A DNA stretch of 64,000 bases from Candidatus Latescibacterota bacterium (GCA_965203805.1 OZ241917.1:160001-224000); one strand, 5' to 3'. Positions 1-64,000 are shown, numbered from the stretch's first letter. The notes: generated by a model from the letters alone, not told the origin. Program-made: numbers and translations.

Positions 1-308
1 AAAAGGAACTGGTGCGCATCCCGGTCATCAACGGAACATTGCCGCACGAGATCATCGGTGTCTTTGGCGCGTCCAGGGTACTGTTAAAGCCCGCGGCGCC
101 GGGAACAGGGGTGATCGCCGGGGGGGGTATTCGGGCGGTTCTGGAACTGGCAGGCGTGCAGAACGTGTTGACCAAATCTCTGGGATCCCAGAATACCCAC
201 AATACCGTGAAGGCGACGCTCCAGGGTCTGGCCAGCCTGCGCGACGCACGGGCGTTCGCGCGGCTGCGGAATATCGACGAATCAGAGCTGACCGGCGTTC
301 GGGAGTAA
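1..308 (+). CDS. rpsE: 30S ribosomal protein S5, C-terminal part (5' truncated by window edge)
   Basis: [40 protein letters not shown] motif; sits before rpmD. Confidence 0.97.
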
Positions 309-314
309 TGCGGA

Positions 315-512
315 ATGGCAAACGACGGGAAGAAACTGAAGATCACCCAGGTTCGCAGCATGATCTCGCGCAATGAAAAACAGCGGCGCACGCTCGCGGC
401 ACTTGGCATTCGACGAATTCGTCACAGCGTAATCCACAACGATACCGCGCAAATTCGCGGAATGGTCAATGCAGTAGCACACCTCGTCGAAGTGAAACAG
501 GCGGACGTCTGA
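315..512 (+). CDS. rpmD: 50S ribosomal protein L30
   Basis: [24 protein letters not shown]; spc operon order. Confidence 0.97.
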
Positions 513-582
513 TTTCGGTTACGGGCGCTTAAAGGTCGCGACGGCCGGGCCCGCTTGCCCTCACGCGTAAGGACTCAGGAAG

Positions 583-1044
583 ATGGAACCAGGAAAGTTC
601 AAGCCCCCCAAGGGCGCGGTGACGAATCGGAAACGACTTGGCTGCGGCGTCGGATCCGGATGCGGCAAGACCAGCGGCAAGGGACACAAGGGTCAGAAGT
701 CCCGTTCGGGCGCCAAGTTGAGGCCGTGGTTTGAGGGTGGGCAGATGCCGTTGCAGCGCAGACTTCCCAAAGTCGGATTCAACAATCCGTCGAAGGTGAT
801 CTATCAGGTCGTCAATCTGGACGATATCGTCAAACGGGGATTGTCCGGACCCGTGACACCCGAACAACTGAAGCAGTCGGGCCTGATACGGTCGATCCGG
901 CGGCCTGTGAAAGTTCTGGGGCGGGGAGACGTCTCCGATCCCATTCAGGTTCATGTGCATGCGGCATCCAGGTCGGCCACAGAGAAAATCGAATCGGCCG
1001 GGGGAAGTGTGACCCTGATCGACGCGGGTTCCGGGGCGGGTTAA
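583..1044 (+). CDS. rplO: 50S ribosomal protein L15
   Basis: GSGCGKTSGKGHKGQKSRSG..FEGGQMPLQRRLPKVGF. Confidence 0.98.
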   Translation: MEPGKFKPPKGAVTNRKRLGCGVGSGCGKTSGKGHKGQKSRSGAKLRPWFEGGQMPLQRRLPKVGFNNPSKVIYQVVNLDDIVKRGLSGPVTPEQLKQSGLIRSIRRPVKVLGRGDVSDPIQVHVHAASRSATEKIESAGGSVTLIDAGSGAG

Positions 1045-1062
1045 TCTGAAGAGGAGGCGGCG

Positions 1063-2400
1063 GTGCTCCAGAGTTTCCAGAGTGCCTTTCGTATCCCCGA
1101 GTTACGCAATCGCATCCTGTTTACGCTGGGGATTCTGGTGGTCTTCCGGGTTGGCACGTATGTGACCATTCCCGGCATCGACCCCAGGGCCCTGGACGAG
1201 TACTTCAGCAGTGCCGCAACGGGCGTCCTGGGATTCTACGACATGTTTGCCGGCGGCGCGTTCGGCCGTGCGACCGTCTTTGCGCTGGGCATCATGCCGT
1301 ATATCAGCGCCTCTATTATCCTGCAGCTGATGGGCGCCGTCATTCCCTTTTTGCAGAAACTCCAGAAGGAGGGCGAAGAGGGGCGGAAGAAGATCACCCA
1401 GTATACCCGATACGGGACCGTTGCGCTGGCAGCCGCTCAGTCGTTTGGCGTCAGCCTGTTTATGGAAAGCCTCCGGTCGCCCATCACGGGAATGCTGGTG
1501 GTGCCGGATCCGGGCCTCGGCTTTCGCTTGCTGACGATACTGACAATTACCGCCGGTACCGTATTTGTGATGTGGCTGGGAGAACAGATAGACGACCGGG
1601 GCATCGGCAACGGCATGTCGATGTTGATTTTCATTGGGATCATCGCCCGTGCGCCCGCGGCCGTGATCCAGGAGTATCAGGACTTCGTGGCCAACAACAA
1701 GCCCATCCTGCTGGAGTTGTTCGTGGTCGTCATCATTGTCGCGGTAACCGCGCTGGTGGTCCTCATTACGCAGGGAACGAGAAAAATACCGGTACAATAC
1801 GCAAAACGAGTTGTGGGCCGGCGGGTCTACGGAGGCCAGAGCACACACATTCCGCTGAAGGTAAATACCTCCGGAGTGATGCCGATTATTTTCGCGCAGG
1901 CCATCATGTTTTTGCCATCCACTCTGGCCAATTTCTTCCCGATGAACGAGTGGGTGCAGGATATGGCATCCAGGTTTTCGCCGGCGACCACCCTGCATGC
2001 GCTTCCGTACTGGATTCTCTATTCCGCAATGATCATCTTTTTCGCCTACTTTTATACGGCGATCGTTTTCAACCCTGTAGATCTGGCCGATAATATGAAG
2101 CGGCAGGGCGGGTTCATTCCCGGCATCCGTCCCGGTAAGCGCACGTCCGATTTTATCGATCGGATTCTGACCCGGATTACGCTTCCAGGATCCATCTTTC
2201 TGGCGGCGATCGCGGTCTTCCCGTTTTTCGTGATCAGCTGGGCCGATGTGAATCCCGGTCTGATCGACTTCTTCGGAGGGACCGGGCTTCTGATTATCGT
2301 AGGTGTGGCGCTCGACACGTTACAGAGGGTGGAATCACACCTCCTGATGCGCCACTACGACGGCTTTATGAAGAAGGGCAGGCTCAGAGGACGTAGGTGA
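1063..2400 (+). CDS. secY: Preprotein translocase subunit SecY
   Basis: [43 protein letters not shown]; about 10 hydrophobic segments; GAGGAGG RBS before GTG. Confidence 0.98.
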
Positions 2401-2416
2401 TCGAAAGGATTTCAGA

Positions 2417-2533
2417 ATGAGGGTTCGCGCGTCCGTCAAGAGACGATGCAATCACTGCAAGATCATCCGGAGAAAGGGCGTGGTCCGGGTGATATGCAAA
2501 CACGATCCAAGTCATAAACAGAGACAGGGTTAG
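2417..2533 (+). CDS. rpmJ: 50S ribosomal protein L36 (38 aa, below the ORF-track cutoff)
   Basis: Translated by hand: [38 protein letters not shown], zinc-ribbon CxxC..C..H; AAGGA RBS. Confidence 0.97.
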
Positions 2534-2592
2534 TATTCTGTCCCGATAAAAGGCGACCCGAATTCGGCCGGCGAATCGCCCGGCCGATATAC

Positions 2593-2632
2593 CCCTTCGA
2601 CCCTTCCACAAGTTCAGGACAGGGCTCAGGGA
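2593..2632. repeat. Nested or tandem short REP-like element in the rpmJ-rpsM spacer
   Basis: CCCTTCGA-CCCTTCCACAAGTTCAGGACAGG-GCTCAGGGA; the reverse strand reads PEPCPELVEGSKG; resembles, from recall, the dispersed CCCTTCGACAAGCTCAGG repeat family. Confidence 0.45.
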
Positions 2633-2733
2633 TCCACGCAAGAGCAGGACCGGACGTATCGGCGGATGGATGGTAACAAATTTCCGGGACGGGACGCAGG
2701 GACCTTCGGAAACCGAACAAAGGAGGAGAACCC

Positions 2734-3114
2734 ATGGCACGTATCGCAGGGGTAGACGTGCCGCGCGATAAGCGTGTGGAAATCGCGCTGACATACATTT
2801 ACGGTATCGGCAGAAGTTCCTCAAACCGGATTCTTGAGAAGACGCAGATTTCCCCGGATACACGCGTTGACGCGTTGAGCGAGGAAGACGTTACCAAACT
2901 CCGGAGTGTGATCGAGGGGGAATACCGTGTGGAGGGCAACCTGAGGAGCGAGGTGGCCATGAACATCAAGCGTCTGATGGACATCGGCTGTTACCGCGGA
3001 CTTCGCTGGCGGCGGGGGCTTCCGGTGCGCGGCCAGCGCACCCGGACGAACGCCCGGACGCGAAAAGGACCGAAGAAGGGTCAGATTGCCAAAAAGAAGA
3101 AAGCGCAGGTTTAA
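2734..3114 (+). CDS. rpsM: 30S ribosomal protein S13
   Basis: [43 protein letters not shown]; AGGAGG RBS. Confidence 0.98.
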
Positions 3115-3136
3115 ACACGATTAAGGAGGCGATCAG

Positions 3137-3526
3137 TTGCCGCCGGAACAAAGAAGAGGCCGACGAAGGAGCAAGCGGGTCGACGGACAGGGTGTTGCCC
3201 ATATTAAAGCGACGTTCAACAATACCATCGTAACCCTGACCGACAGGGACGGGCACGTGATTTCGTGGTCCACTACTGGAAAAGTGGGTTTTAAGGGTTC
3301 CCGCAAGAGTACGCCCTTTGCCGCCCAGTTGGCTGCGGAAGCCGCGGCAAAAGAAGCAATGTCCATGGGGCTGCGACGTGTTGAGGTCTGGGTCAAGGGC
3401 CCGGGCGTCGGCCGGGAAGCCGCCGTACGCGCGTTGCAGGGCGCCGGACTGGAAATCGCGGCGATTCGCGATGTCACCCCGATTCCTCACAACGGCTGCC
3501 GGCCGCCCAAGCGACGTCGGGTGTAA
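3137..3526 (+). CDS. rpsK: 30S ribosomal protein S11 (TTG start)
   Basis: [42 protein letters not shown]; AAGGAGG RBS. Confidence 0.98.
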
Positions 3527-52901: not shown

Positions 52902-53211
52902 AAAAACAAAAGCAGGAAGAATGCTACCTGTCATGGAATTTGCCGTTAAATCCTTCCACACCGGACCGCGCAACACAACACTGACCAACCCGGATTCTTA
53001 ACTGCAGAAACTGCCGCGGTTTTTATACGATAAATTTTTTATAAACAATATTTTATTCAATTAAAAGACCAATGTTTGTGAATCATCCAGGGGGATTGAG
53101 TCACATCTGTCCAGGATCGGTTTCAGACCTTGACGTCATTGCCCTTTTCATCTGCAATAAAGCTGCGAAACTGGTGACCCGATTGCGGTCGTTTCCGCTC
53201 TGGTTTGCACG

Positions 53212-53239
53212 TTCTGTGGCTTTCGTGCTTTTTGTGGCT
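53212..53239 (-). repeat. Short tandem repeat, 9-nt period, 3 copies
   Basis: Plus strand TTCTGTGGC-TTTCGTGCT-TTTTGTGGC. Confidence 0.55.
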
Positions 53240-53371
53240 ATAGTCGTTCGACGATCACAGATGACCGCGTCGTCTCCCCTGTAAAAGCGGACACCTGCCC
53301 GGACAACATATCGATCACGAATCGGAAAGCAAAGCATGGAATGGGGTGCGCCTGTGGCAGGAAGCGGCGAC

Positions 53372-53932
53372 ATGCGTGTTGAGTCGAATCGCGGGACGCC
53401 TTCGGGCCTTCAACCTGCGGGGCCCCAATCCGGTCTCACGATCTCCCTCTTCGTCTACGGCACCCTGAAGCGCGGTTATTCGAACCACGACGGCTACTGT
53501 CGCGGCGTGCTGGCGATTGAGCCGGCGCTGGTCAGGGGATGCATGTATATCAGGCCGGATCGCATTCCGTTTCTCGACGTACCCGACCGGGATATCCTCG
53601 CCATTGGAACCGCCGATCCGCGGTCCGATGCGGCCGCGCAGCGACGCCTTGCACGTGACATTGAGTCTGGAAAATTGGCCGAAAGCCCGCCCGATCCGCA
53701 GGTGAGCGACCGGGGCGTCGTGCGCGGGGAATTGCTCGTATTCGACGATCCTGAAACCCGCCTGCCCGCCATCGACCGCCTGGAAGGCTTCCGCCCCGCC
53801 GGTCGAAGTCTGTACCGCCGGGTGCTCGTGCCGGTACGGGTGAAAGATTCGTTCACAGTCGCCTGGACTTACGCGGTGGAGACGAAACCGCTCGATTGGC
53901 CGAAACTGGGATCCGACTGTTGGGCGGGATGA
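53372..53932 (+). CDS. Gamma-glutamylcyclotransferase (AIG2-like) family protein; start uncertain
   Basis: LFVYGTLKRG..NH, V.GEL, IDRLEG, LYRR. Confidence 0.85.
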   Translation: MRVESNRGTPSGLQPAGPQSGLTISLFVYGTLKRGYSNHDGYCRGVLAIEPALVRGCMYIRPDRIPFLDVPDRDILAIGTADPRSDAAAQRRLARDIESGKLAESPPDPQVSDRGVVRGELLVFDDPETRLPAIDRLEGFRPAGRSLYRRVLVPVRVKDSFTVAWTYAVETKPLDWPKLGSDCWAG

Positions 53933-54155
53933 GGGTACACGCCGCGGAGAAGTCGTTTGACCCTATACGGGGCGTCGACGATGTGTATCAATATAGCAGC
54001 AGAGAATATAAGGGAGAGTTACAATAACGCGAAATTACCAGTAAACTGAGAGTCTCCTCCAAATAGTCCGGCGTATCGGCCCCTCACTTCCGTGCTGTTC
54101 GCGTCCCCGATTCCTGATCCGCACAGGCTGTTGAAATTTCCCCGCCCCCGACCTT

Positions 54156-54207
54156 ATATAACAGTTGTTATATTTCCCTTGACAATCACCCGATCATTGT
54201 TTATATT
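54156..54207 (+). promoter_or_regulatory. Palindromic operator plus sigma70 promoter of the defence operon
   Basis: Perfect ATATAACA-GT-TGTTATAT (54156-54173), 5 nt upstream of TTGACA-17 nt-TATATT (54179-54207). Confidence 0.7.
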
Positions 54208-54241
54208 CCGTGTGCCTATATAGAAAAGACGGGGAGTCTGT

Positions 54242-57200
54242 ATGTCAACCGTTATGTCAAGCAGAATTCCAGACGATTATTACAAGCGTATCAAGAGCGC
54301 GAGAGGCGTCATGGGGCTGACCCAGACCCAGTTCGCAAACTTGATCGGAGTCTCGTTTGCTTCCGTCAATCGATGGGAAAACGGACAGTCTCGCCCGAAT
54401 GGTCTGGCATGGAGGCGCATCGTCGAACTTGAACACGAGTCCATCGCTGCAGTGGACGCAGGTCAGGACCATTCAGAGACGAAACCAACCGCTCCGCCGC
54501 AACTTGATTTCGCGGCCGACCCTCACGCCGTTTCCGTCCTCGCAGAAGCACATCGGCTGGCCTGGGGGCACCTCTTCAACCCCACGTTCGCGACCGAGAC
54601 TTCGTCAATCGATCCACTTCCTCATCAGCGCATCGCGGTATATGAGACAATGTTACAAAAGGCCCCCCTGCGATTCCTTCTCGCAGACGACGCAGGCGCC
54701 GGCAAAACGATCATGACTGGATTGTACGTTCGCGAGATGTTGTCCCGTGGATTGATACGACGCGTCTTGATCGTGCCCCCCGCCGGTCTGGTGGGTAACT
54801 GGGAGCGGGAGATGCGGACGCTGTTTCGGCTTCAGTTCCGGATCATTCACGGTACGGATGCGCAGGCCGGAAATCCATTCACGCTTCCCGAAAGCGACTT
54901 GGTCATCGTGAGCGTCGATACTCTGGCCGGAAAACGCATGTTTACGCATCTGCGAAACCGGGATACGAAGGCTTACGACCTGGTCGTTTTCGACGAAGCT
55001 CACAAGTTGTCTGCTCATCGGGCGCCAGGGTTCCAGGTACGGAAAACGGACCGATACAGACTCGGGGAAGCAATCGCCGGCGCCGAGTCCGGCGACTGCG
55101 ATTGGGCGCTTTCCTGGTCTGCCCAGCACTTGCTACTTCTGACGGCAACTCCCCATATGGGGAAGGACTATCCGTACTACGCGCTATGGCGCCTGCTGCT
55201 TCCGGAGACCCTAACGACCCAGGACGCTTTTGACGAATTCTCTAGTGAGTCCCGTTCCAGACACTTTCTCCGCCGGACGAAGGAGGAGATGGTCCACTTT
55301 GACGGGTCAGCACTGTACCCGCAGAGAAACTGCGATACCCTCAGCTACAGTCTTTCGCAGGGGCCTGGTAGCGAACAGGAACTCTACGATGAGACCACGG
55401 ATTACATTAAGTATTTCTACAACCGTGCGAGGCAGCTGAACCGTTCCGCCGCTCGGTTGGCGATGAGCGTATTCCAGCGGCGGCTGGCAAGTTCGACGTA
55501 CGCATTGATGCGATCCTTCGAGCGGCGGGAAGCGAAACTGGGCGCTTTGATCGAAGCAATACGCAGAGGCAATGTAACCGAGGAACAGCTGGTTCGCCAA
55601 CAGCGGCAGTTGGATGGTCTCGACGACGCATTCGAAACGCGTACCTTTGATGAGGATCCGGATACGGATGATGGACAGGAGCAGGACGAGGCGTACGAAA
55701 GCCAGGCATTAGGCGGCACCGTGGCTGTCAGTCTTGTCGAACTGGAGGATGAACGACGCAGGGTGGTAGGGCTGCTGAGCAGGGCTCGTGATCGACTCGA
55801 AGTGGGCGAGGAATCGAAATTTGAAAGGCTTCGAGAGGTACTTCGGGAACCCAAATACGCAAACGAGAAATTTATCATCTTCACGGAACACCGGGACACC
55901 GCCGTCTTCCTTGTACGTCGACTTGAGGGTCTCGGCTTCACGGGGCGTGTCGCCCTGATTCACGGTGGATTGGCGTATCAAGAGCGAGAGAGACAGGTGG
56001 AATTCTTCCGGCGGCCGGCGACAGAGGGTGGCGCCAGCTACCTCGTTGCGACCGACGCAGCCGGTGAGGGAATAAACCTGCAATTCTGCTGGCTGATGGT
56101 TAATTACGACATACCCTGGAATCCTGCACGGCTCGAACAGCGGATGGGGCGCATTCACCGCTACGGCCAAGTGCACGATCCTGTAATCGTCGTCAATCTC
56201 GTCGCAGGCGGAACGCGAGAAGGGCGGGTCTTGAAAACCCTTCTCGACAAGCTGGAGGCAATGCGGCGACAGCTGCAATCCGACAAGGTATTCGACGTTG
56301 TCGGACGTCTCTTCGCAGATGTATCCATACGGGAATATCTCGAACAGGCGGTCACCCAGAACGCCGAAGCTGCTGCAAGTCGACTGGAGGGCGACCTTAC
56401 GGTGGAGCAGATGGAGGCTCTCGACGATAAAGAACGCTCGATTTATGGCGAAGGGGGTGACGTACGGCGCAGGCTTACCCGTCTCAACAAAGATACAGAT
56501 CAGGAGTCCTTTCGCAGGCTCCTGCCCGGATTCGTTCGCCGTTTCGTGGCCAAGGCCGCGCCTCTGCTCGACCTGCGGGTGGATGGCGATCTGGAACAGT
56601 CCTTCGCACTCGTTCCGGGAAGCGCTCGCGCCGGCAATCTCGTCTTGTCTGCACTCGACACGTACCCCGAAACCGCGCAGGGTCGGCTGACGGTCTACAG
56701 GTCGGCCGGCGGAGAGGAAGCGGTGTGGATGCATCCGGGCGAACCGGTCTTCGACGCCATCTCGGCGTCGATTATAAGCCGGTACGAACGTGAGGGTGTC
56801 CGCGGATCGGTGTTCATCGACCCGGAAGCGTCCGAGCCCTATCTGTTCCATATTGCGAGAATGACGGTAGAAGAGGAAGGTCCGGTCGCCACGCGGTCGC
56901 CTGAATTGCCGGACGAAGATCCTGCCGCGGTATCACGCTCAAGGCTTCTTGATTCCAGACTGATCGGGCTACGTCAATCGAGCGATGGAAACGTCGAGGA
57001 GTCACAGGTGGAACGCATGCTCATATTGCAGGAGGCGGACGGCTTCGCGCCCGGGCGTGAGCCGCTAGCGGCCGCGGCTCTGAGTCTCCTTTCAGATGTC
57101 GCTCGGTTTGCGCGTGAAGACGTACTTGAGTCCCTCCTGGAACAACATCGACAGCGCCGTACCGCCGAACTGTCGGCCCGTATCGACTTTGTCAATCGCG

Positions 57201-57856
57201 GATTCGACTATGAGGCTGCGGAACTCGCATCAGCACGTTCGCGGCTTACCGCGCAGGCTCGAGCGGGCGACAGCAAGGCAAACGCAAGACTTGGCTATGT
57301 TAAGGCACGTCAACGGCTCCAGGCTGCGTGCCGGGCTAGACGCCAGGCCGAACTGACGGGCGAATCAGACATTGCCGGGGCTGGTGAGGTCGAGTTTCTG
57401 GTTCATGCGCTTGTCGTGCCGGCTCAGAACAATGAAGATTCAGACCGTTATGACACGGACATCGAAGCTATCGCAATGGAAGTCGCGATCGACTATGAAA
57501 GGAGTTTCGGCGCTGATGTGAAGGATGTATCCAAACCCAAACTTGCCCGGCGCGTCGGACTCCCCGACTGGCCGGGATTTGACGTACTTTCGGTCCGTGA
57601 CTGCGCGGAGCGTCGCAGGATAGAGGTCAAGGGACGCGCCGGTACCGGAAGCGTAGAGATGAGGGCGAATGAGTGGGCTAACGCCTGCATCCACCGCAAC
57701 GAATACTGGCTCTACGTCGTCTTTGACTGTGCATCACCCCGACCACGCCTCGTAAGGGTGCGTGATCCGTTTACCAAACTGCTCGTCAGTAGACGCGAGA
57801 CTGTAGCCCACACCATCACGCCTGGTGAAATATCGAAGGCAGCCGAGGACCGGTGA
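54242..57856 (+). CDS. XRE-HTH + SNF2-family helicase + C-terminal DUF3883/NOV-like nuclease domain
   Basis: LTQTQFA.LIGVSFASVNRWENG (HTH_3); PLPHQ, LLADDAGAGKT, FDEAH, LTATPH, EGINLQ, WNP.RLEQRMGRIHRYGQ; GFDVLS..IEVKGR..NEW. Confidence 0.9.
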   Translation: MSTVMSSRIPDDYYKRIKSARGVMGLTQTQFANLIGVSFASVNRWENGQSRPNGLAWRRIVELEHESIAAVDAGQDHSETKPTAPPQLDFAADPHAVSVLAEAHRLAWGHLFNPTFATETSSIDPLPHQRIAVYETMLQKAPLRFLLADDAGAGKTIMTGLYVREMLSRGLIRRVLIVPPAGLVGNWEREMRTLFRLQFRIIHGTDAQAGNPFTLPESDLVIVSVDTLAGKRMFTHLRNRDTKAYDLVVFDEAHKLSAHRAPGFQVRKTDRYRLGEAIAGAESGDCDWALSWSAQHLLLLTATPHMGKDYPYYALWRLLLPETLTTQDAFDEFSSESRSRHFLRRTKEEMVHFDGSALYPQRNCDTLSYSLSQGPGSEQELYDETTDYIKYFYNRARQLNRSAARLAMSVFQRRLASSTYALMRSFERREAKLGALIEAIRRGNVTEEQLVRQQRQLDGLDDAFETRTFDEDPDTDDGQEQDEAYESQALGGTVAVSLVELEDERRRVVGLLSRARDRLEVGEESKFERLREVLREPKYANEKFIIFTEHRDTAVFLVRRLEGLGFTGRVALIHGGLAYQERERQVEFFRRPATEGGASYLVATDAAGEGINLQFCWLMVNYDIPWNPARLEQRMGRIHRYGQVHDPVIVVNLVAGGTREGRVLKTLLDKLEAMRRQLQSDKVFDVVGRLFADVSIREYLEQAVTQNAEAAASRLEGDLTVEQMEALDDKERSIYGEGGDVRRRLTRLNKDTDQESFRRLLPGFVRRFVAKAAPLLDLRVDGDLEQSFALVPGSARAGNLVLSALDTYPETAQGRLTVYRSAGGEEAVWMHPGEPVFDAISASIISRYEREGVRGSVFIDPEASEPYLFHIARMTVEEEGPVATRSPELPDEDPAAVSRSRLLDSRLIGLRQSSDGNVEESQVERMLILQEADGFAPGREPLAAAALSLLSDVARFAREDVLESLLEQHRQRRTAELSARIDFVNRGFDYEAAELASARSRLTAQARAGDSKANARLGYVKARQRLQAACRARRQAELTGESDIAGAGEVEFLVHALVVPAQNNEDSDRYDTDIEAIAMEVAIDYERSFGADVKDVSKPKLARRVGLPDWPGFDVLSVRDCAERRRIEVKGRAGTGSVEMRANEWANACIHRNEYWLYVVFDCASPRPRLVRVRDPFTKLLVSRRETVAHTITPGEISKAAEDR

Positions 57857-57881
57857 ACCGATACGTATACAATCCTCGCCG

Positions 57882-59498
57882 ATGAGGAGTCTCAACGTGA
57901 TCACAAAAGCCATGCGGTTCTTCAACACGGCTGGTCCCATCGATACCGAGATGCACTACCATATCCCGCCCCTTGCGCGGCTGGACGCGGAGGACCTCAT
58001 GCTGCTCATCCGGCAGCAGAAGTACTTCGTCCTGCACGCGCCGCGGCAGACCGGCAAGACATCGGCATTGTTCGCCTTGAGGGACCAGCTCAACACCAGC
58101 GGCGAGTTTCGCTGCGTCTACGTAAACGTCGAGGTCGGCCAGTCAGCGCGAGAGGACGTGGCCGCCGCGATGCGGGCCATACTCGGTCAGATGGCTTCGG
58201 AGGCGGAGTACGTTTTGAGCGACTCGACTCTTGCGAAACTAAGCCTCGACACATTCGAGGCGTTCGGCCCGCACCAGGCGCTCCGAGGGACATTGGCGCG
58301 CTGGGCCGAGTCGGACGCCAGGCCACTGGTGCTCATGCTCGACGAGATCGACGCGCTGATCGGCGACACCCTGCTGGCAGTGCTGCGGCAACTGCGTGCC
58401 GGCTATCCGGAACGCCCGCGCCGCTTTCCGCAGAGTGTGATTCTGTGCGGGGTGCGCGACGTGCGGGACTACCGCATCCGGTCGTCCGTCGAGAACGCCG
58501 TCGTCGCCGGTGGCAGCGCCTTCAACGTCCGCGCCGAGTCCCTGCGGCTGGGTGACTTCACCCGCGCCGACGTCGAGCGCCTGCTGGCGCAGCACACCTC
58601 GGAGACCGGCCAGTCGTTCGCCGGCGAGGCGCGCGCCGCGGTCTGGGAGTTGACGCGGGGGCAGCCGTGGCTGGTCAACGCCCTGGCCTACGAAGCTTGC
58701 TTCAGGAACAGGGCGGGGAGAGACCGTGAGCGTACGATCACTGCCGAAGCCGTCCAGGACGCGCGCGAAGATTTGATCCTGCGCCGCGAGACCCATTTGG
58801 ATCAACTCACCGACAAGCTGCAGGAGGAACGAGTGCGCCGCGTGGTCGAGCCACTGCTGAGCGGCGGCGGTGCCGATCCGGTTGCAGACGATGATCTTCA
58901 GTACGTCCGCGACCTGGGTCTGGTGGGCCAGGGCAAGCCCGTCGCGATTGCCAACCCGATTTACCGCGAAGTGATCCCGCGCGCCCTCACCTATACCACA
59001 CAGGAGATGTCGATCCATCACGACCCGGCCTGGTACGTCGACGCCGATGGGAGCCTGGAGGCGAGTAGACTGCTGGCCGCGTTCCAAGAGTTTTTCCGTG
59101 AACACTCCGAACATTGGGAGGAGCGATTCCAGTACAAGGAGGCCGGACCGCAGTTGCTGCTGCAGGCGTTCCTGCAGCGCATCGTCAACAGCGGGGGACG
59201 TATTGAGCGCGAGTATGGCTTGGGCCGGGGACGCACGGATATGCTGTTGGTGTGGCCGGTGAGCGGGGATACCGGCCGTAAGCAGAAGGTCGTCGTCGAA
59301 TGTAAAATCCTGCGCCGGGGGCTGGAGCGAACGCTGGTCGAGGGATTGGCGCAGACGCGCGCCTACATGGATCGCTGCGCCGCGGCGGAGGGGCATCTCG
59401 TGCTCTTTGACCGGAGCAAGGACAGGTCGTGGGACGACAAGGTGTATCGCCGCGAGGAAACCGAAGGCGGCGCGCGGGTTACGGTGTGGGGAATGTGA
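57882..59498 (+). CDS. AAA-family ATPase with C-terminal PD-(D/E)XK nuclease-like domain (start 57882, 57897 or 57912)
   Basis: FFNTAGP, Walker A APRQTGKT, Walker B LMLDEID, GQPWLVN, EREY..GRGRTD....VVECK. Confidence 0.82.
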   Translation: MRSLNVITKAMRFFNTAGPIDTEMHYHIPPLARLDAEDLMLLIRQQKYFVLHAPRQTGKTSALFALRDQLNTSGEFRCVYVNVEVGQSAREDVAAAMRAILGQMASEAEYVLSDSTLAKLSLDTFEAFGPHQALRGTLARWAESDARPLVLMLDEIDALIGDTLLAVLRQLRAGYPERPRRFPQSVILCGVRDVRDYRIRSSVENAVVAGGSAFNVRAESLRLGDFTRADVERLLAQHTSETGQSFAGEARAAVWELTRGQPWLVNALAYEACFRNRAGRDRERTITAEAVQDAREDLILRRETHLDQLTDKLQEERVRRVVEPLLSGGGADPVADDDLQYVRDLGLVGQGKPVAIANPIYREVIPRALTYTTQEMSIHHDPAWYVDADGSLEASRLLAAFQEFFREHSEHWEERFQYKEAGPQLLLQAFLQRIVNSGGRIEREYGLGRGRTDMLLVWPVSGDTGRKQKVVVECKILRRGLERTLVEGLAQTRAYMDRCAAAEGHLVLFDRSKDRSWDDKVYRREETEGGARVTVWGM

Positions 59499-59889
59499 AC
59501 TGAAAAAGCTGCCGGCCGTGCGGCTAAAGAGGCTGCGAAGGAAAGCGAGATCGGTGCAAGGAGAACGGAACGTACAGCAGCCGCGTTTTCGCAAAGGGAG
59601 GCCACCCGGCGTGGTCATGCGCCAATCACCGACGGCAACGCACGTCTATTTGACGAGTACATTGGAACCGTTTAGTGGGACTGGGGAGTTCTGCACGGTG
59701 GAAGTGGTTGCGTTCGAAATGACGCGCTTCGCCGGAACAAGGCTGCTCAGAGGCAACGGACCGAGAGTGGAAATGGTGGACCGTGGCGCGATGAGGATTA
59801 AGGAGTGGCGCTATAATGGAGCAATCAGGAAACGACACTTGTCCCACAATTGACAGATCGACGGTCCATTTAAATAATAAGAGGGATTG

Positions 59890-60813
59890 ATGGCCAGAAA
59901 TTGGGAGAATGACTTCAGCCAGTGGGCGCGACCACCAGGCAGAACTGAGGATGAGCGTTGTGAAAATGCCATCAAAGCTATTCGCAATGCAATCGCCGAA
60001 AACGATAAGTTGAAGAGCCGGACACTGAAAGTTTTCCCGCATGGCTCGTACCACAACAGTGTCAATGTCCGGCAGGATAGTGACGTCGACGTGGGGATAC
60101 TTTGCGACGAGTCTTTCTTTCGCCACCTCCCCGATGGGACCACCCCTGAGACCTTTAGCCTTATTCCAGCTACCTACGTCTATACTCAGTTTAAGAACGA
60201 AATCGAGGAAGCTCTGACTGAACACTTAGGATATGGGGCTGTGCGTCGTGGAAACAAAGCCATCAATATTCGAGAAAACACGTACCATGTAGAAGCTGAC
60301 ATTGCTCCGTTCTTTGAATATCGATTCTACTCGCACGATGGAACCTATCGCTGTGGTGTAGCTTTGTCACCCGACAATGGCGGGCTGATCTATAACTACC
60401 CCGAGCGGATACTCGATAGCTGGCCGCAGATACCGATGCACTTCGAGAACGGAGTTGCTAAAAACAAAAAAACAGATCGTTCCTACAAGGGCGTCGTTCG
60501 CGTTCTCAAAAAGATACGCAACGAAATGGAGGATGCTGGCATCGCTGCCGCGAGGTCGATTCCTGGATTCTTGGTCGAGTGCATGATCTGGAATGTGCCG
60601 AATGCGTGTTTTAAGGGAAATACGTGGGACGAAAGAGTACAAGCGGTGCTTCTACACCTTTGGTCAGGTACCAAGGATGAATCGAGCTGTGAGAAATGGA
60701 AAGAGGTCAACGATATAAAGTTCCTCTTTGCATCAGCTCAACCTTGGACTATACGTGAGGCATATGCCTTCATTGACGCTGCGTGGAGCTATGTAGGTGT
60801 AAGGATAAAATGA
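59890..60813 (+). CDS. CBASS CD-NTase, CdnE-like
   Basis: W..PP..TE..RCENA...IR.A; GSY.N..NVR.DSDVD; ADIAP; NYP; NGV.KN; YK..VR.LK; F.VEC..WN. Confidence 0.88.
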   Translation: MARNWENDFSQWARPPGRTEDERCENAIKAIRNAIAENDKLKSRTLKVFPHGSYHNSVNVRQDSDVDVGILCDESFFRHLPDGTTPETFSLIPATYVYTQFKNEIEEALTEHLGYGAVRRGNKAINIRENTYHVEADIAPFFEYRFYSHDGTYRCGVALSPDNGGLIYNYPERILDSWPQIPMHFENGVAKNKKTDRSYKGVVRVLKKIRNEMEDAGIAAARSIPGFLVECMIWNVPNACFKGNTWDERVQAVLLHLWSGTKDESSCEKWKEVNDIKFLFASAQPWTIREAYAFIDAAWSYVGVRIK

Positions 60814-61454
60814 AAATTGAACGGATCCATATCTATGTCTTTGTTGGAATAGCCGCACTTGTGTGGTGGGTGACTTTGGTTTTTCAGGGTACCATTGTCA
60901 CCTGGGAACACGCAACGCCCTTCAGTGTAGTCGTATTTGCGCTTGGATTGTTTGGGTTTGCCTTCGATCGATTTTTTTGGCGTTTCAGATTATTTCACGG
61001 ATGGCTGGTTAAACGGCCGGACCTGCGCGGGACTTGGCGTGTCGAAATCCAGTCAAGTTATATCAATCCTGAGAGGATGGAGCGGGTACCCGCGTTCGTT
61101 TGCTACATGGGGGTCAAACAGACTCTTTCGGAGCTCAAGATGCATTTGATGACACCGGAATCCGAGTCCTTGTCCATCGCAGGCCACATTGCGCGCCAAC
61201 CGAGCGGAGAGGGTTATCAGGTGATCTGTAGCTACACGAACGAACCTGACATCCTTCTTCGAAACGAACGTGTTAGTGATATGCACAAGGGAATACTAAT
61301 AATCGATTCTCATGGTTCCGGTGTGCGGCCCGATACACTTACGGCGGAATACTGGACAGACCGCAAGACGGTGGGTACGATGGTTTTCAGCATGCGTGCC
61401 AACGAGGTTTTTACCCGCTTTGAAGACGCGAGGCAGTATTTCGAGCAAAGCTAA
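60810..61454 (+). CDS. CBASS effector, two TM helices plus beta-barrel (Cap15/S-2TM-beta-like)
   Basis: Two N-terminal TM segments; RPDLRGTW, I/V.QT, T.ES.S, Y.NEP, H.G, YWTDR.T.G; ATGA overlap with the CD-NTase stop. Confidence 0.85.
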   Translation: MKIERIHIYVFVGIAALVWWVTLVFQGTIVTWEHATPFSVVVFALGLFGFAFDRFFWRFRLFHGWLVKRPDLRGTWRVEIQSSYINPERMERVPAFVCYMGVKQTLSELKMHLMTPESESLSIAGHIARQPSGEGYQVICSYTNEPDILLRNERVSDMHKGILIIDSHGSGVRPDTLTAEYWTDRKTVGTMVFSMRANEVFTRFEDARQYFEQS

Positions 61455-61510
61455 TCAGACATTCAGATGCCAATCTTTGCATACCCAATCTTAATCGAGC
61501 CGAATAAGAC

Positions 61511-61642
61511 GTGACCCCCGACGACAAGCGCCTCATTGAAAATGCCTTCCCGCTCATGCAGATTTCTCTCGACTCCGTACACGAGAAGAACGTGCAGTAC
61601 GGGCACATATCCACCCTAAAAATACGGAACAGCCAAAAATGA
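61511..61642 (+). pseudogene. Truncated second copy of the DUF1156 methyltransferase 5' end (open 43-codon ORF)
   Basis: MTPDDKRLIENAFPLMQISLDSVHEKNVQYGHISTLKIRNSQK*; 28/36 aa and 82/108 nt identical (hand count) to 63537-63644. Confidence 0.88.
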
Positions 61643-63540
61643 TCAAAACTAACCTATCTTTCTCTTTACCGCAGCCATGGCAAGGGCAGACATTCAGCAT
61701 TCAGGAGGTTGGTCCGATAAACTATCTTGTAGGTCCAAATGGAAGTGGCAAAACTCAATTCGCGGGTGAATTGGTCCGACACCTCGAAGAGTCACGCCTG
61801 CTTGGTACAGATAGGCTAAGTGAAATGGGGAGATCCTCGCAGGTAAGAACCTATTTCGGTGACCCATTTGACGAAGGTTTCCCATCGCGCCATTTCGACC
61901 AATTAAGATTAGCTGGTGCGGATGGATCAGGTATTGACACAATAGTCCTACTGGAAGAGAGAATGGACCTCCGTATCCAGGTTGAAGCAATTCTTAGTAG
62001 TCTCTTCGATCGAGAGATTATCCTCGAATGGGAATCAGGATTTCTTGTACCCTACATACGACGCAGAGGAGACAGCGCATCTTACAGGCTGGATCGCGAA
62101 GAGTGCCATGGAATCAAGGAACTCTTAGTGATGTTGACGCACCTTTATGACGACGAGCGTAAGTACCTAATTGTAGACGAACCCGAGCTCAATTTACACC
62201 CTCAACATCAAGCTTTCTTTTTACAGGAAGTTCGTAAGCTCGCAGGAGATCCATCAACCGACAGTAGAAAGAAAATCGTATTCCTGATTACGCACTCCCC
62301 ATTTATCCTGGACTTTCGGTCCGAGGACGATCTGAAGTCAGTCATATCCTTCAGCCTGGATTACTCCTCCCCGAAGCAGATTGCCAATCTTGACCTGGAA
62401 ACATCCTTGAGATCGTTTTCGTTAGCAGGAAGAATGAACACGAATCATAAGCAACTCTTTTTTTCCGACAATCCAATCTTCGTCGAAGGTCTTCTCGACG
62501 CCCAGCTAATTGCGGCAATGATGGAGGCTCGCGGTGCGTCAGTCGCTGCCGCCGGAAGTTGTATCATTGACTCGGGTGGTTCCGAGGAAGTTAACCATTA
62601 TTTGACCTTGTGCAAAGGTCTTGGCAAGGAAGCTCATTTCCTTTATGACCTCGATAGTTTATTTGGTGGAAACCTACGGGCTTGCATACGAGATGACCAA
62701 TCGGTACGAAGCTTTTTGGCAGCTGCTGGACTCGGAAGTGACTTTGGTAAATATTGCGGCGCGCTGGACAGGAAACTCAAATGCCTGATAGATCTCTTAC
62801 TCACGATTCCTTCTCAACAAGGTCATCTTGCAGGGTTACACGACTTTCTGAAATCGCTCGGTAAAATGCCTTGGGATAAAGGTAAACTGGCAAGGGCACG
62901 AACAGCAGTAATGACGGCGATAAGCAAGCATAGAGAAGACATCATACGATCGGTTTCGCCGCAATTGGTCGCGGATATAGAAGGTCATAGGGAACAAATA
63001 CTTACAGCCTTGAAGCAGAAGAATATCAGTGTCTTACCGGGAGGAAGTATAGAACGATACCTGCCACACTATACGGGAGATGAATACCGCCTTAACGATG
63101 AGCAAAAACGAAAAGCCGTAAATTCAGAGATCCGAGAATTCCCCAACTTGGCCAGTGAAGAAGCGTTTGCTAATAGATACGGGCAATTGTACGAAGCCAT
63201 TTGTGCCTTGCCATCAAAGGATGATGTGGACGTCGATACAGTTCTTCGAAAATACATAAGTGACTACATACATGAGCTTCAGAAAGTAATACTGGAAAAT
63301 TCCGGTCTTAGCCGCAAACAAATACTACGACGTTTGAATGCCATTCTTCCAGGACTTTCCCGAGTTTTTTCTCTCTCTACATATGAGTCGAGCCAGCAGG
63401 ACGAGTTCAGCGCGACAATCGAAATCGCAAGAATGCTTGGCGTCGAAAAGCGTGTTGTATACGTAAGCCACCGAACTAACGCAGGCATGGGGAAATTCGA
63501 TATAGAGGAAGCTACAAAAATGAGCGAGAACGCACTATGA
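61639..63540 (+). CDS. OLD-family-like ABC-ATPase + TOPRIM nuclease
   Basis: Walker A GPNGSGKT, Walker B LIVDEPELNLHP, ITHSP, TOPRIM FVEG..D and YDLD, G.IERYL; visibly lower GC than host genes. Confidence 0.82.
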   Translation: MIKTNLSFSLPQPWQGQTFSIQEVGPINYLVGPNGSGKTQFAGELVRHLEESRLLGTDRLSEMGRSSQVRTYFGDPFDEGFPSRHFDQLRLAGADGSGIDTIVLLEERMDLRIQVEAILSSLFDREIILEWESGFLVPYIRRRGDSASYRLDREECHGIKELLVMLTHLYDDERKYLIVDEPELNLHPQHQAFFLQEVRKLAGDPSTDSRKKIVFLITHSPFILDFRSEDDLKSVISFSLDYSSPKQIANLDLETSLRSFSLAGRMNTNHKQLFFSDNPIFVEGLLDAQLIAAMMEARGASVAAAGSCIIDSGGSEEVNHYLTLCKGLGKEAHFLYDLDSLFGGNLRACIRDDQSVRSFLAAAGLGSDFGKYCGALDRKLKCLIDLLLTIPSQQGHLAGLHDFLKSLGKMPWDKGKLARARTAVMTAISKHREDIIRSVSPQLVADIEGHREQILTALKQKNISVLPGGSIERYLPHYTGDEYRLNDEQKRKAVNSEIREFPNLASEEAFANRYGQLYEAICALPSKDDVDVDTVLRKYISDYIHELQKVILENSGLSRKQILRRLNAILPGLSRVFSLSTYESSQQDEFSATIEIARMLGVEKRVVYVSHRTNAGMGKFDIEEATKMSENAL

Positions 63541-64000
63541 ACGCCAATGACAAACGCCTTATCGAAGTCGCCTTCCCGCTGAAGCAGGTCTCCCTCGACT
63601 CTGTCCACGAGAAAAACGTGCGGCACGGCCATATTTCCACGCTCCACATCTGGCCGGCAAGGAGGCCGTTGGCGGCTTGTCGTGCGGCCTTGATCGCCAC
63701 GCTGCTTCCCGACCCGGGCGACGCGGAAACCCGAAACGCGATTATGGAACGTATGGCTGGTCGCATTATCGACAAGATCGAGCGCAAGCGGGTGAACGGC
63801 CGCCTGGTTGAGAAGACCAAGCCTGAGACGCTTGGAGGCATCCTTCACTGGAAACGCGAAAGTGATTCAGATCTCACGTGGTTCCGCGATGAGATCCGCA
63901 AAGCTTACGGCGGGCGTGAGCCAAAAGTTTTGGACCCGTTTGCGGGTGGGGGTGCCATTCCCCTCGAAGCCTTGCGTCTCGGTTGTGACGTCACGGCCAT
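63537..64000 (+). CDS. DUF1156 adenine DNA methyltransferase (3' truncated by window edge; absent from ORF track)
   Basis: Translated by hand: MNANDKRLIEVAFPLKQVS..GHISTLHIWPARRPLAACRA..LLPDP..KVLDPFAGGGAIPLEALRLG (SAM-binding motif). Confidence 0.9.
   Translation, partial: MNANDKRLIEVAFPLKQVSLDSVHEKNVRHGHISTLHIWPARRPLAACRAALIATLLPDPGDAETRNAIMERMAGRIIDKIERKRVNGRLVEKTKPETLGGILHWKRESDSDLTWFRDEIRKAYGGREPKVLDPFAGGGAIPLEALRLGCDVTA

Follow-up and report, generated by a model that had tools for sequence, protein, structure and literature searches.

A decaying hmaB start between embedded defence genes of a Latescibacterota Hma operon, and its counterparts in related loci

Results

An Hma operon with three passenger units between hmaA and hmaB

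We analysed a stretch of 64,000 nucleotides (nt) from a Candidatus Latescibacterota bacterium (GCA_965203805.1, OZ241917.1:160001-224000; hereafter the window), whose 3' end runs into an Hma operon, and found between two of the defence genes embedded there a partial second copy, or stub, of the 5' end of the methylase gene hmaB. All window features described below are on the + strand. The name Hma was introduced by Payne 2021, and a 2026 paper uses the label Type-1 DUF499-centred BREX-related system for the same system (BREX, bacteriophage exclusion); phage defence has been demonstrated for a Halomonas HmaA (Liu et al. 2024, PMC11232893). The locus is an Hma system, predicted from its genes to be anti-phage, and the gaps between its core genes hold other defence genes.

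The three core genes lie on one strand in the order hmaA-hmaB-hmaC. hmaA (54242..57856; 1204 amino acids (aa); PADLOC HmaA, 7.1e-162) encodes a helix-turn-helix region, an SNF2 helicase and a NOV_C nuclease domain (Pfam HTH_3, SNF2-rel_dom, Helicase_C and NOV_C), the last of which, of the PD-(D/E)xK type, forms the C-terminus (5e-13). A candidate sigma-70-like promoter, identified by a consensus match of 11/12 alone, ends 35 nt before hmaA (54179..54207). hmaB, encoding a DUF1156 N6-adenine methylase of 1060 aa, occupies 63537..64000 and continues to 66719 beyond the window (PADLOC, 8.7e-113 for the full 1060 aa and 2e-27 for the 154 aa inside the window; Pfam DUF1156, 1.2e-18). The first-pass annotation, made from the window alone, had recognised the helicase-methylase core and noted that a DUF499 ATPase usually accompanies it; reading past 64 kilobases (kb) located this gene, hmaC, also on the + strand (L003 6638-9958; PADLOC HmaC, 1.3e-73; Pfam DUF499, 1.2e-18). 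Between hmaB and hmaC lies a gene for a 901-aa DEAD helicase (L003 3673-6378; DEAD and Helicase_C profile matches), to which none of the 80 related loci described below gave a tblastn match, and a gene for a TIR protein follows hmaC (L003 10069-11028). No integrase or transposase family was matched among 62 open reading frames (ORFs), comprising 43 upstream, 8 in the locus and 11 in the 20 kb beyond the window, which agrees with the first-pass reading of the window. The genome (G000) carries five full-length DUF1156 methylase genes, that of the window and those at G000:C1:439996, 1430190, 4363386 and 4547055, and thus probably has several Hma-type systems.

Between hmaA and hmaB we confirmed three co-directional units, as initially annotated: an ATPase, a pair of cyclic-oligonucleotide-based anti-phage signalling system (CBASS) genes, and an OLD-like ATPase-TOPRIM gene. 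The first (57912..59498; 528 aa) is an AAA_22-type ATPase (Pfam AAA_22, 1.4e-9; no PADLOC match) with a candidate D...ExK-like motif, picked out by eye, at its C-terminus. Behind it lies a frameshifted C-terminal remnant of a gene of ~150 aa (59593..59805; tblastn of cluster-9 proteins, E down to 4.6e-9, in two frames). This gene, whose family was not recognised, is the usual partner of the ATPase, behind which it stands in L062, L069, L068 and L025; ~570 nt, its 5' half included, are gone from the window.

The CBASS pair consists of a CD-NTase (59887..60813; 308 aa; PADLOC Cyclase, 2.5e-113; Pfam SMODS, 4.2e-5) and a Cap15-type 2TM effector (60810..61454; 214 aa; PADLOC 2TM effector, 2.9e-58; Pfam Cap15_CD_rec, 1.7e-14). 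The two genes overlap and the unit holds no further ORF (no Cap2/Cap3 and no HORMA/TRIP13), as in CBASS type I. A second 11/12 sigma-70-like match, again by consensus alone, stands immediately before the CD-NTase gene (59850..59878) and makes it doubtful that all units are served by one promoter, as had been suggested; no terminator-like site was seen on the + strand in 53000-64000. The third passenger (61639..63540; 633 aa) combines an ABC ATPase and a TOPRIM nuclease and belongs to the OLD family (Pfam AAA_15, 8.1e-12, AAA_21, and OLD-like_TOPRIM, 1.7e-10; PADLOC GajA, 1e-15, and Old, 6.4e-15). Its TGA overlaps the ATG of hmaB, and no GajB-like partner gene was seen beside it among the ORFs of the locus. 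From the CBASS genes through the OLD gene the G+C content is 45-54%, versus 58-66% in the surroundings.

A former hmaB start behind the CBASS genes

The second methylase 5' end that the first-pass annotation had placed at 61511 is genuine. The stub (61511..61642) is a 43-codon ORF that starts with GTG and whose TGA overlaps the ATG of the OLD gene. Positions 61512-61617 are 77% identical to 63538-63643 over 106 nt, and this pair is the sole long direct repeat in 57800-63760. The assignment was supported by tblastn (E 6.7e-12) and by a hidden Markov model (HMM) of the HmaB N-terminus (E 6.3e-17), and homology to hmaB extends to ~61621, corresponding to hmaB nt ~113. At positions invariant in 31 HmaB proteins the stub carries V11N, K16M, R29Q, H30Y, H37K and W39R, and is therefore not kept as part of a methylase.

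The upstream side of the stub reveals where it came from. In L015, L035 and L068 the end of the Cap15 gene is followed by a 55-nt spacer and an intact hmaB; in the window, the end of the Cap15 gene, its 56-nt spacer (61455..61510) and the stub can be aligned with these elements base by base, and the GTG of the stub lies opposite the hmaB ATG of these relatives. This collinearity indicates that hmaB formerly stood directly behind the CBASS pair, and comparison of the loci thus identifies the stub as the decaying old hmaB start, cut at about nt 113. The gene order of L068, hmaA-AAA ATPase-small gene-CBASS-hmaB, is the arrangement that would be expected before the OLD gene arrived.

On the downstream side, the stub is joined to the 5' edge of the OLD gene's own 17-nt leader, ATACGGAACAGCCAAAA (61622..61638). 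The leader, ATACGGAAyAGCCAAAr, also precedes the OLD gene in L014, where it follows a stub, and in L011, where no stub stands before it. The word CACAT occurs both in hmaB nt 109-113 and in the OLD leader of L011, giving a 5-nt microhomology at the join as judged by eye.

Contigs of run X3, which may be the source sample, span both junctions of the stub with zero differences. In run X4, no contig is at least 88% alike over 61348-62683, with traces (depth 0.44-1.19) up to 63351. Among the contigs of X3-X6 matched to 54000-64000, none joins across the OLD gene, and neither a circle nor an empty-site molecule was found. A tblastn search of 40000-90000 at E <=10 for further stubs of hmaA, hmaB or hmaC returned just this one. 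The earlier proposal that each arrival leaves an old methylase start as a scar consequently holds for the OLD gene and fails for the first two units, which have no scar.

Stubs recur in related loci

Scanning species-representative genomes with an alignment of the 31 HmaB proteins yielded 557 stretches encoding a relative. The best 80 were kept, so the counts below describe the closest relatives; these Hma loci span many phyla. L092-L095, from same-genus or same-family genomes, and L101 duplicated loci among the 80 and were not counted again.

The cargo between hmaA and hmaB is highly variable. The gap measures 223-8876 nt (median, 3624) and is at least 500 nt long in 71 of 72 loci, while that between hmaB and hmaC measures 7-9092 nt and reaches at least 500 nt in 59 of 68. 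The 521 gap ORFs, the window's six passenger proteins included, fall into 229 clusters, and the passengers comprise HEC-01, PARIS, short prokaryotic Argonaute (pAgo) with TIR-APAZ, SIR2, Dsr2, GmrSD, CBASS, OLD, AbiJ and STAND NTPases, with few transposases. Insertion sequences were seen within passengers: a DDE_Tnp_1 element splits a CD-NTase gene (L068:8388-9194) and an rve element splits a Dsr2-like gene (L051:5935-6789). Homologues of the window's AAA_22 ATPase (68-86% identity) stand directly after hmaA in 6 loci and directly after hmaC in 7. At the DNA level this ATPase family is multicopy in related genomes, with up to 13 matches per genome at 67-78% identity, including five head-to-tail copies in G026 (G026:C1:2462-10801); the window's genome has a single copy. 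The gene upstream of hmaB overlaps it by ATGA in 23 of 66 loci, involving at least 7 gene families, which fits passengers that travel with an hmaB 5' end.

An hmaB 5' stub upstream of the full gene was detected in 10 of the 80 relatives (L004, L008, L009, L010, L011, L013, L014, L027, L051 and L081), or 11 of 81 loci with the window. The tblastn and N-terminal HMM searches agreed on these loci, and the HMM added no weaker ones. Each stub lies directly upstream of a passenger, either OLD, HEC-01, PARIS AriAB or Dsr2. Since the stub loci are partly related, we counted junction types instead of loci and distinguished seven: OLD (window and L014); HEC-01 (L004, L008 and L009, and L010); HEC-01 with a longer stub (L013); AriAB (L011), which has 9 nt past the homology in common with the second type and may be related to it; and one each in L027, L051 and L081. 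The stubs end at hmaB nt 107-113, 130, 137, 144 and 182, none beyond codon 65 in this subfamily. By our own arithmetic, the chance that seven breakpoints would all fall at or before nt 182, if spread evenly over the detectable range of nt ~75-3180, is ~5e-11; short stubs are thus favoured, either by the mechanism or by the loss of long repeats.

Three comparisons bear on the direction of events. First, L012 and L004 have flanks that are 90-93% identical; L012 reads unk1234-23 nt-intact hmaB, whereas L004 reads unk1234-24 nt-stub-HEC-01A-HEC-01B-hmaB, so that an unbroken site can be set against a filled one. Second, in L010 the same stub-HEC-01 junction stands behind a different gene, a short pAgo, at a distance of 40 nt, which is again close to what is usual: elsewhere the spacing before hmaB is 14-22 nt, and once 60 nt. 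Third, in L011 the stop codon of an OLD gene still overlaps the degenerate start of the stub (ATGA changed to ATAA), and the AriAB gene comes next. In these loci the stub appears to stay with the older upstream gene and the newcomer to lie between stub and full hmaB, as the first-pass annotation had proposed. Fragments of HEC-01A and HEC-01B of L004 (30 and 111 nt, 90-93% identical) also lie upstream of unk1234 in L012 (L012:5723-5864), and the history of these two loci is thus more complex than a single insertion.

The opposite direction was considered for the window: a donor extending from the hmaA end through CBASS to hmaB nt 1-113 might have entered a locus that already read OLD-hmaB, with its homology anchor upstream and an illegitimate join 17 nt before the OLD ATG, so that the stub came with the upstream passenger. 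The single collinear block of Cap15 gene, spacer and stub would suit such a donor, as would the lowered G+C content from CBASS to OLD and the two loci (L055 and L070) in which an OLD gene stands directly before hmaB with an ATGA overlap and no stub. However, the stub-OLD junction of L014 is identical and no CBASS lies upstream of it, and in L011, as in L004 compared with L012, it is clearly the older gene upstream to which the stub belongs, the newcomer lying downstream. We consider this order of events unlikely.

We also asked whether the stub is retained for a function of its own, namely as a short leader ORF through which the passenger's translation is coupled to the hmaB start signals. In the window and L014 its 43 codons form an uninterrupted frame, with the TGA overlapping the OLD ATG, and ATGA overlaps are frequent at hmaB in Hma operons. 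Such a role is nevertheless very improbable: the start codon is lost in L011; in-frame deletions are present in L004, L008 and L009, and a 21-nt deletion in L013; the window, L009 and L011 have substitutions at invariant residues; and the OLD genes of L055 and L070 do without any stub.

Other core-gene ends and distant subfamilies

Partial copies are not confined to the hmaB 5' end. Extra hmaB 3' ends occur in L020 (strong) and in L049, L063, L064 and L073 (short); extra hmaA 3' ends in L020, L051, L063 and L081 (twice), and weakly in L060; and an extra hmaC 5' end in L081, and weakly in L016. With these duplications and an hmaB-hmaC gap as variable as that between hmaA and hmaB, the helicase/methylase junction, at which the first-pass annotation had placed the gain of cargo, is not the only such site. 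In L051 (L051:3920-4597) and L081 (L081:9944-10453), hmaB residues ~1-45 are fused in frame to an hmaA NOV_C end as intact ORFs, independently of each other as judged by their different junctions. The isolated C-terminal region of HmaA has been reported to nick DNA (Liu 2024, PMC11232893).

Of 168 genomes of the phylum searched with Pfam DUF1156, 71 had a match, and 14 stretches were examined further. In six further loci of distant DUF1156 subfamilies, whose hmaB is just 29-47% identical to that of the window's subfamily, we found stubs that measure 127-289 nt and share 84-94% identity with the resident start. L096 has two stubs, one before a UG19 reverse transcriptase; L097/L098 has two, one before SIR2-HerA; L099 and L102 have one stub junction in common; and L100 and L104 are also stub loci. 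The search missed the window's stub (its five matches in G000 are all full genes), so decayed stubs are undercounted.

The stubs of L096 (G101:C2:3316001-3336000) lie 2.6 and 12.9 kb upstream of the full hmaB, and between them are a helicase-DUF2290 pair, an ABC ATPase, an HTH-M78 peptidase and, on the opposite strand, a CBASS (cyclase and patatin). In L106, L108 and L109 an N-terminal DUF1156 fragment stands alone, as an ORF of 115-210 aa, and a full methylase gene is absent from the surrounding 10 kb; these three were left unclassified. In L106 an ABC ATPase lies beside the fragment, with a PhyH neighbour as in L096.

Junction words and the conserved hmaB 5' block

The first-pass annotation had regarded RTGAAC, with which hmaA, the ATPase gene and the OLD gene all end (57853, 59495 and 63537), as a scar or junction signature. 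The words exist and are no more frequent than chance allows. The + strand of the window has 35 copies versus ~24 expected from base composition, and 45 of 674 TGA stops of long ORFs in the first 3 Mb (6.7%) are followed by AC. Among relatives, none of 52 hmaA genes ends in RTGAAC and 4 of 68 hmaB genes start with ATGAAC, the majority start being ATGACC. On these grounds we rejected RTGAAC as a junction motif.

Codons 11-40 of hmaB form its second most conserved nucleotide window (83.5% mean pairwise identity among 71 genes, 95% at the protein level) and the one of this kind closest to the variable gap. Their synonymous-codon identity is 0.56, versus 0.55-0.59 in other conserved windows, and none of the 6 pairs of inverted repeats in 57800-63760 lies at passenger boundaries. 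With synonymous conservation ordinary and boundary repeats absent, no dedicated site is seen, and we rejected the idea of a dedicated DNA site in this block. It is conserved as protein and would serve as the nearest homology for exchange between Hma loci.

These data also speak to integron-like capture, in which a site-specific recombinase would act at hmaB nt ~110. Three junction types (OLD, HEC-01 and AriAB) do end at nt 107-113, and no stub of this subfamily exceeds 65 codons. The junctions at nt 127-289 do not fit such a site, codons 11-40 are unexceptional at synonymous positions, no inverted repeats bound the passengers, and the ORF scans of the locus revealed no recombinase gene. We regard capture of this kind as extremely improbable.

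Discussion

The stub and its recurrence in relatives are real, and they appear to be the first direct footprint of passenger entry into Hma operons. We favour, with a probability of roughly 0.7, a homology-anchored displacement of the hmaB 5' end by recombination between Hma loci. In the ancestral state hmaB would have stood directly behind the CBASS pair. Recombination between two different Hma loci would then have put the OLD gene, accompanied by the 5' end of another hmaB, behind the old hmaB start, one join lying within shared hmaB sequence and the other being illegitimate, at hmaB nt ~113, where CACAT offers microhomology with the OLD leader. The first ~40-60 codons of hmaB, which are highly conserved and form the nearest strong homology to the variable region, would provide the anchor for exchanging passengers across phyla. 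Each join inside hmaB would leave a short stub and add a slot, so that the old passenger is not replaced. A join inside the gene with a second crossover further down would produce a stub, and a join upstream of hmaB would not, in keeping with the absence of stubs from 70 of 81 loci. What the loci show directly is the stub, its collinearity with CBASS-hmaB junctions, its recurrence and a relative with the empty site; by which pathway recombination proceeded, in which direction and order, and with what part for RecA-type homology, is what we infer from comparing them.

The window's hmaB itself seems to be a mosaic: over codons 1-90 it is closest to L014, the second locus with the stub-OLD junction; over codons 121-240 and 301-420 it is closest to L035, L068 and L069, and in the specificity region to L024 and L016. 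Several observations weigh against the displacement scheme. The signal of mosaicism is modest, and two loci with no OLD gene, L005 and L006, are almost as near in the 5' part. Just one of the three passengers in the window has a stub and the great majority of loci have none, so that either few exchanges take the route that leaves a stub or stubs do not last long. By sequence, the stub of the window comes closest to the hmaB start of L014 (84%, versus 74-77% for CBASS loci, over 95 nt). We dropped the attempt to trace stub origin by the nearest hmaB start, since 95 nt are too few and the ranks lie a few bases apart. Many of the 80 loci are related, and locus counts are therefore not event counts. 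Finally, the stub-OLD junction is common to the window and L014, which differ in their upstream genes; the same is true of L004, L008 and L009 versus L010, and a third junction recurs in different upstream contexts in L099 and L102. A single arrival per locus is insufficient to explain these cases, which call for swaps made later by way of the stub, for a cassette with the junction built in, or for repeated joins at microhomology.

The second of these options can be put more specifically: a circle consisting of a passenger and a piece of ~110-290 nt from the hmaB 5' end could enter any hmaB by a single Campbell-type crossover, reversibly. This would refine the displacement scheme without denying it, the conserved block being used as an integrase-free attachment site. 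The three recurring junctions would be explained directly, as would the native spacing that each stub retains to its own upstream gene and the 97% identity between the stub of L014 and its resident hmaB start, and a circular intermediate was proposed earlier for Rhs tips (Jackson 2009, PMC2935791). On the other side, neither a circle nor an empty-site molecule turned up in the contigs of X3-X6 and none of them joins across the OLD gene, swaps of upstream passengers by crossovers inside the stub would yield the same patterns, and the window repeats, just 77% alike, are poor substrates for recombination. We therefore regard a portable cassette as possible at most. Equally tentative is its corollary that the first ~110-290 nt of hmaB act as a recombinase-free attachment site at which units enter through the host's homologous recombination, stack and can loop out, a RecA-driven counterpart of the integron.

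That defence genes accumulate in Hma operons is established. Embedded genes were reported in 931 of 1,485 Hma systems, in the same orientation in 96.7% (Payne et al. 2024, 10.1101/2024.01.29.577857), and insertions in 66.5% of Hma systems, termed a "defence gene insertion hotspot" (Liu et al. 2024, PMC11232893). Those systems resemble the loci described here in having co-directional defence systems nested among hmaA, hmaB and hmaC, and HEC-01, PARIS, OLD-like and CBASS passengers are common to both. Hence the hotspot between helicase and methylase to which the first-pass annotation pointed is real, but had already been published. The origin of embedding was left open in Payne 2024, whose curation kept loci with each hma gene present once and none a pseudogene, excluding repeated or broken genes (10.1101/2024.01.29.577857). 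Searched by term, the main text of Payne 2024 and the text of Liu 2024 make no mention of stubs, remnants, duplicated hma ends or recombination, and a literature search at the level of titles and abstracts found no paper on stubs in embedded defence loci.

The displacement of Rhs C-terminal tips (Jackson 2009, PMC2935791) offers a close parallel: a conserved core serves as homology anchor, the incumbent is displaced together with a partial copy of the core, and there are arrays of displaced units, decaying fragments and a lower G+C content in the imported part. Likewise, the Hma stub lies beside the displaced unit and resembles the resident core, the passengers on either side of it are unrelated, and the unbroken arrangement is found in relatives (L012 for L004; L015, L035 and L068 for the window). 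The Hma case is a mirror image in that the 5' end of the conserved gene is duplicated, unlike the 3' end in Rhs; moreover, the variable units are whole defence genes upstream, functional in themselves when displaced, whereas those of Rhs are toxin tips fused to the core. In the orphan immunity arrays of the Vibrio cholerae type VI secretion system (Kirchberger 2017, as cited in PMC8189183), modules are also replaced by homologous and homology-facilitated illegitimate recombination, and old modules and truncated effector genes are retained; these arrays differ in belonging to an interbacterial toxin system in which immunity genes are retained.

The stacking of units also invites comparison with a site-specific system. 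Integron cassettes are likewise passengers stacked at a single position of a conserved platform; they point in one direction and are mostly poor in promoters. Unlike an integron, the Hma locus has no IntI integrase among the 62 ORFs scanned and no attC-like boundary repeats in 57800-63760; its junctions do not fall at one fixed base, and the CBASS unit seems to bring its own promoter.

Defence genes are known to be embedded in Hma, BREX, DISARM (defence island system associated with restriction-modification) and type I restriction-modification (R-M) operons, and new systems have been discovered by this means, with the route of entry left open. The stubs point to exchange anchored in the conserved ends of core genes, and not to mobile-element enzymes, and they would explain why passengers stack instead of replacing one another. 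Partial copies of core-gene ends thus provide a search handle for cassette boundaries and arrival order, and the mechanism is open to bench testing with defined DNA substrates. If the hmaB 5' end does act as an attachment site, the stubs that delimit each unit would tell searches for new defence genes precisely where it starts and stops, perhaps in BREX, DISARM and type I R-M operons too, and defence genes would travel between phyla as small units carrying the hmaB block.

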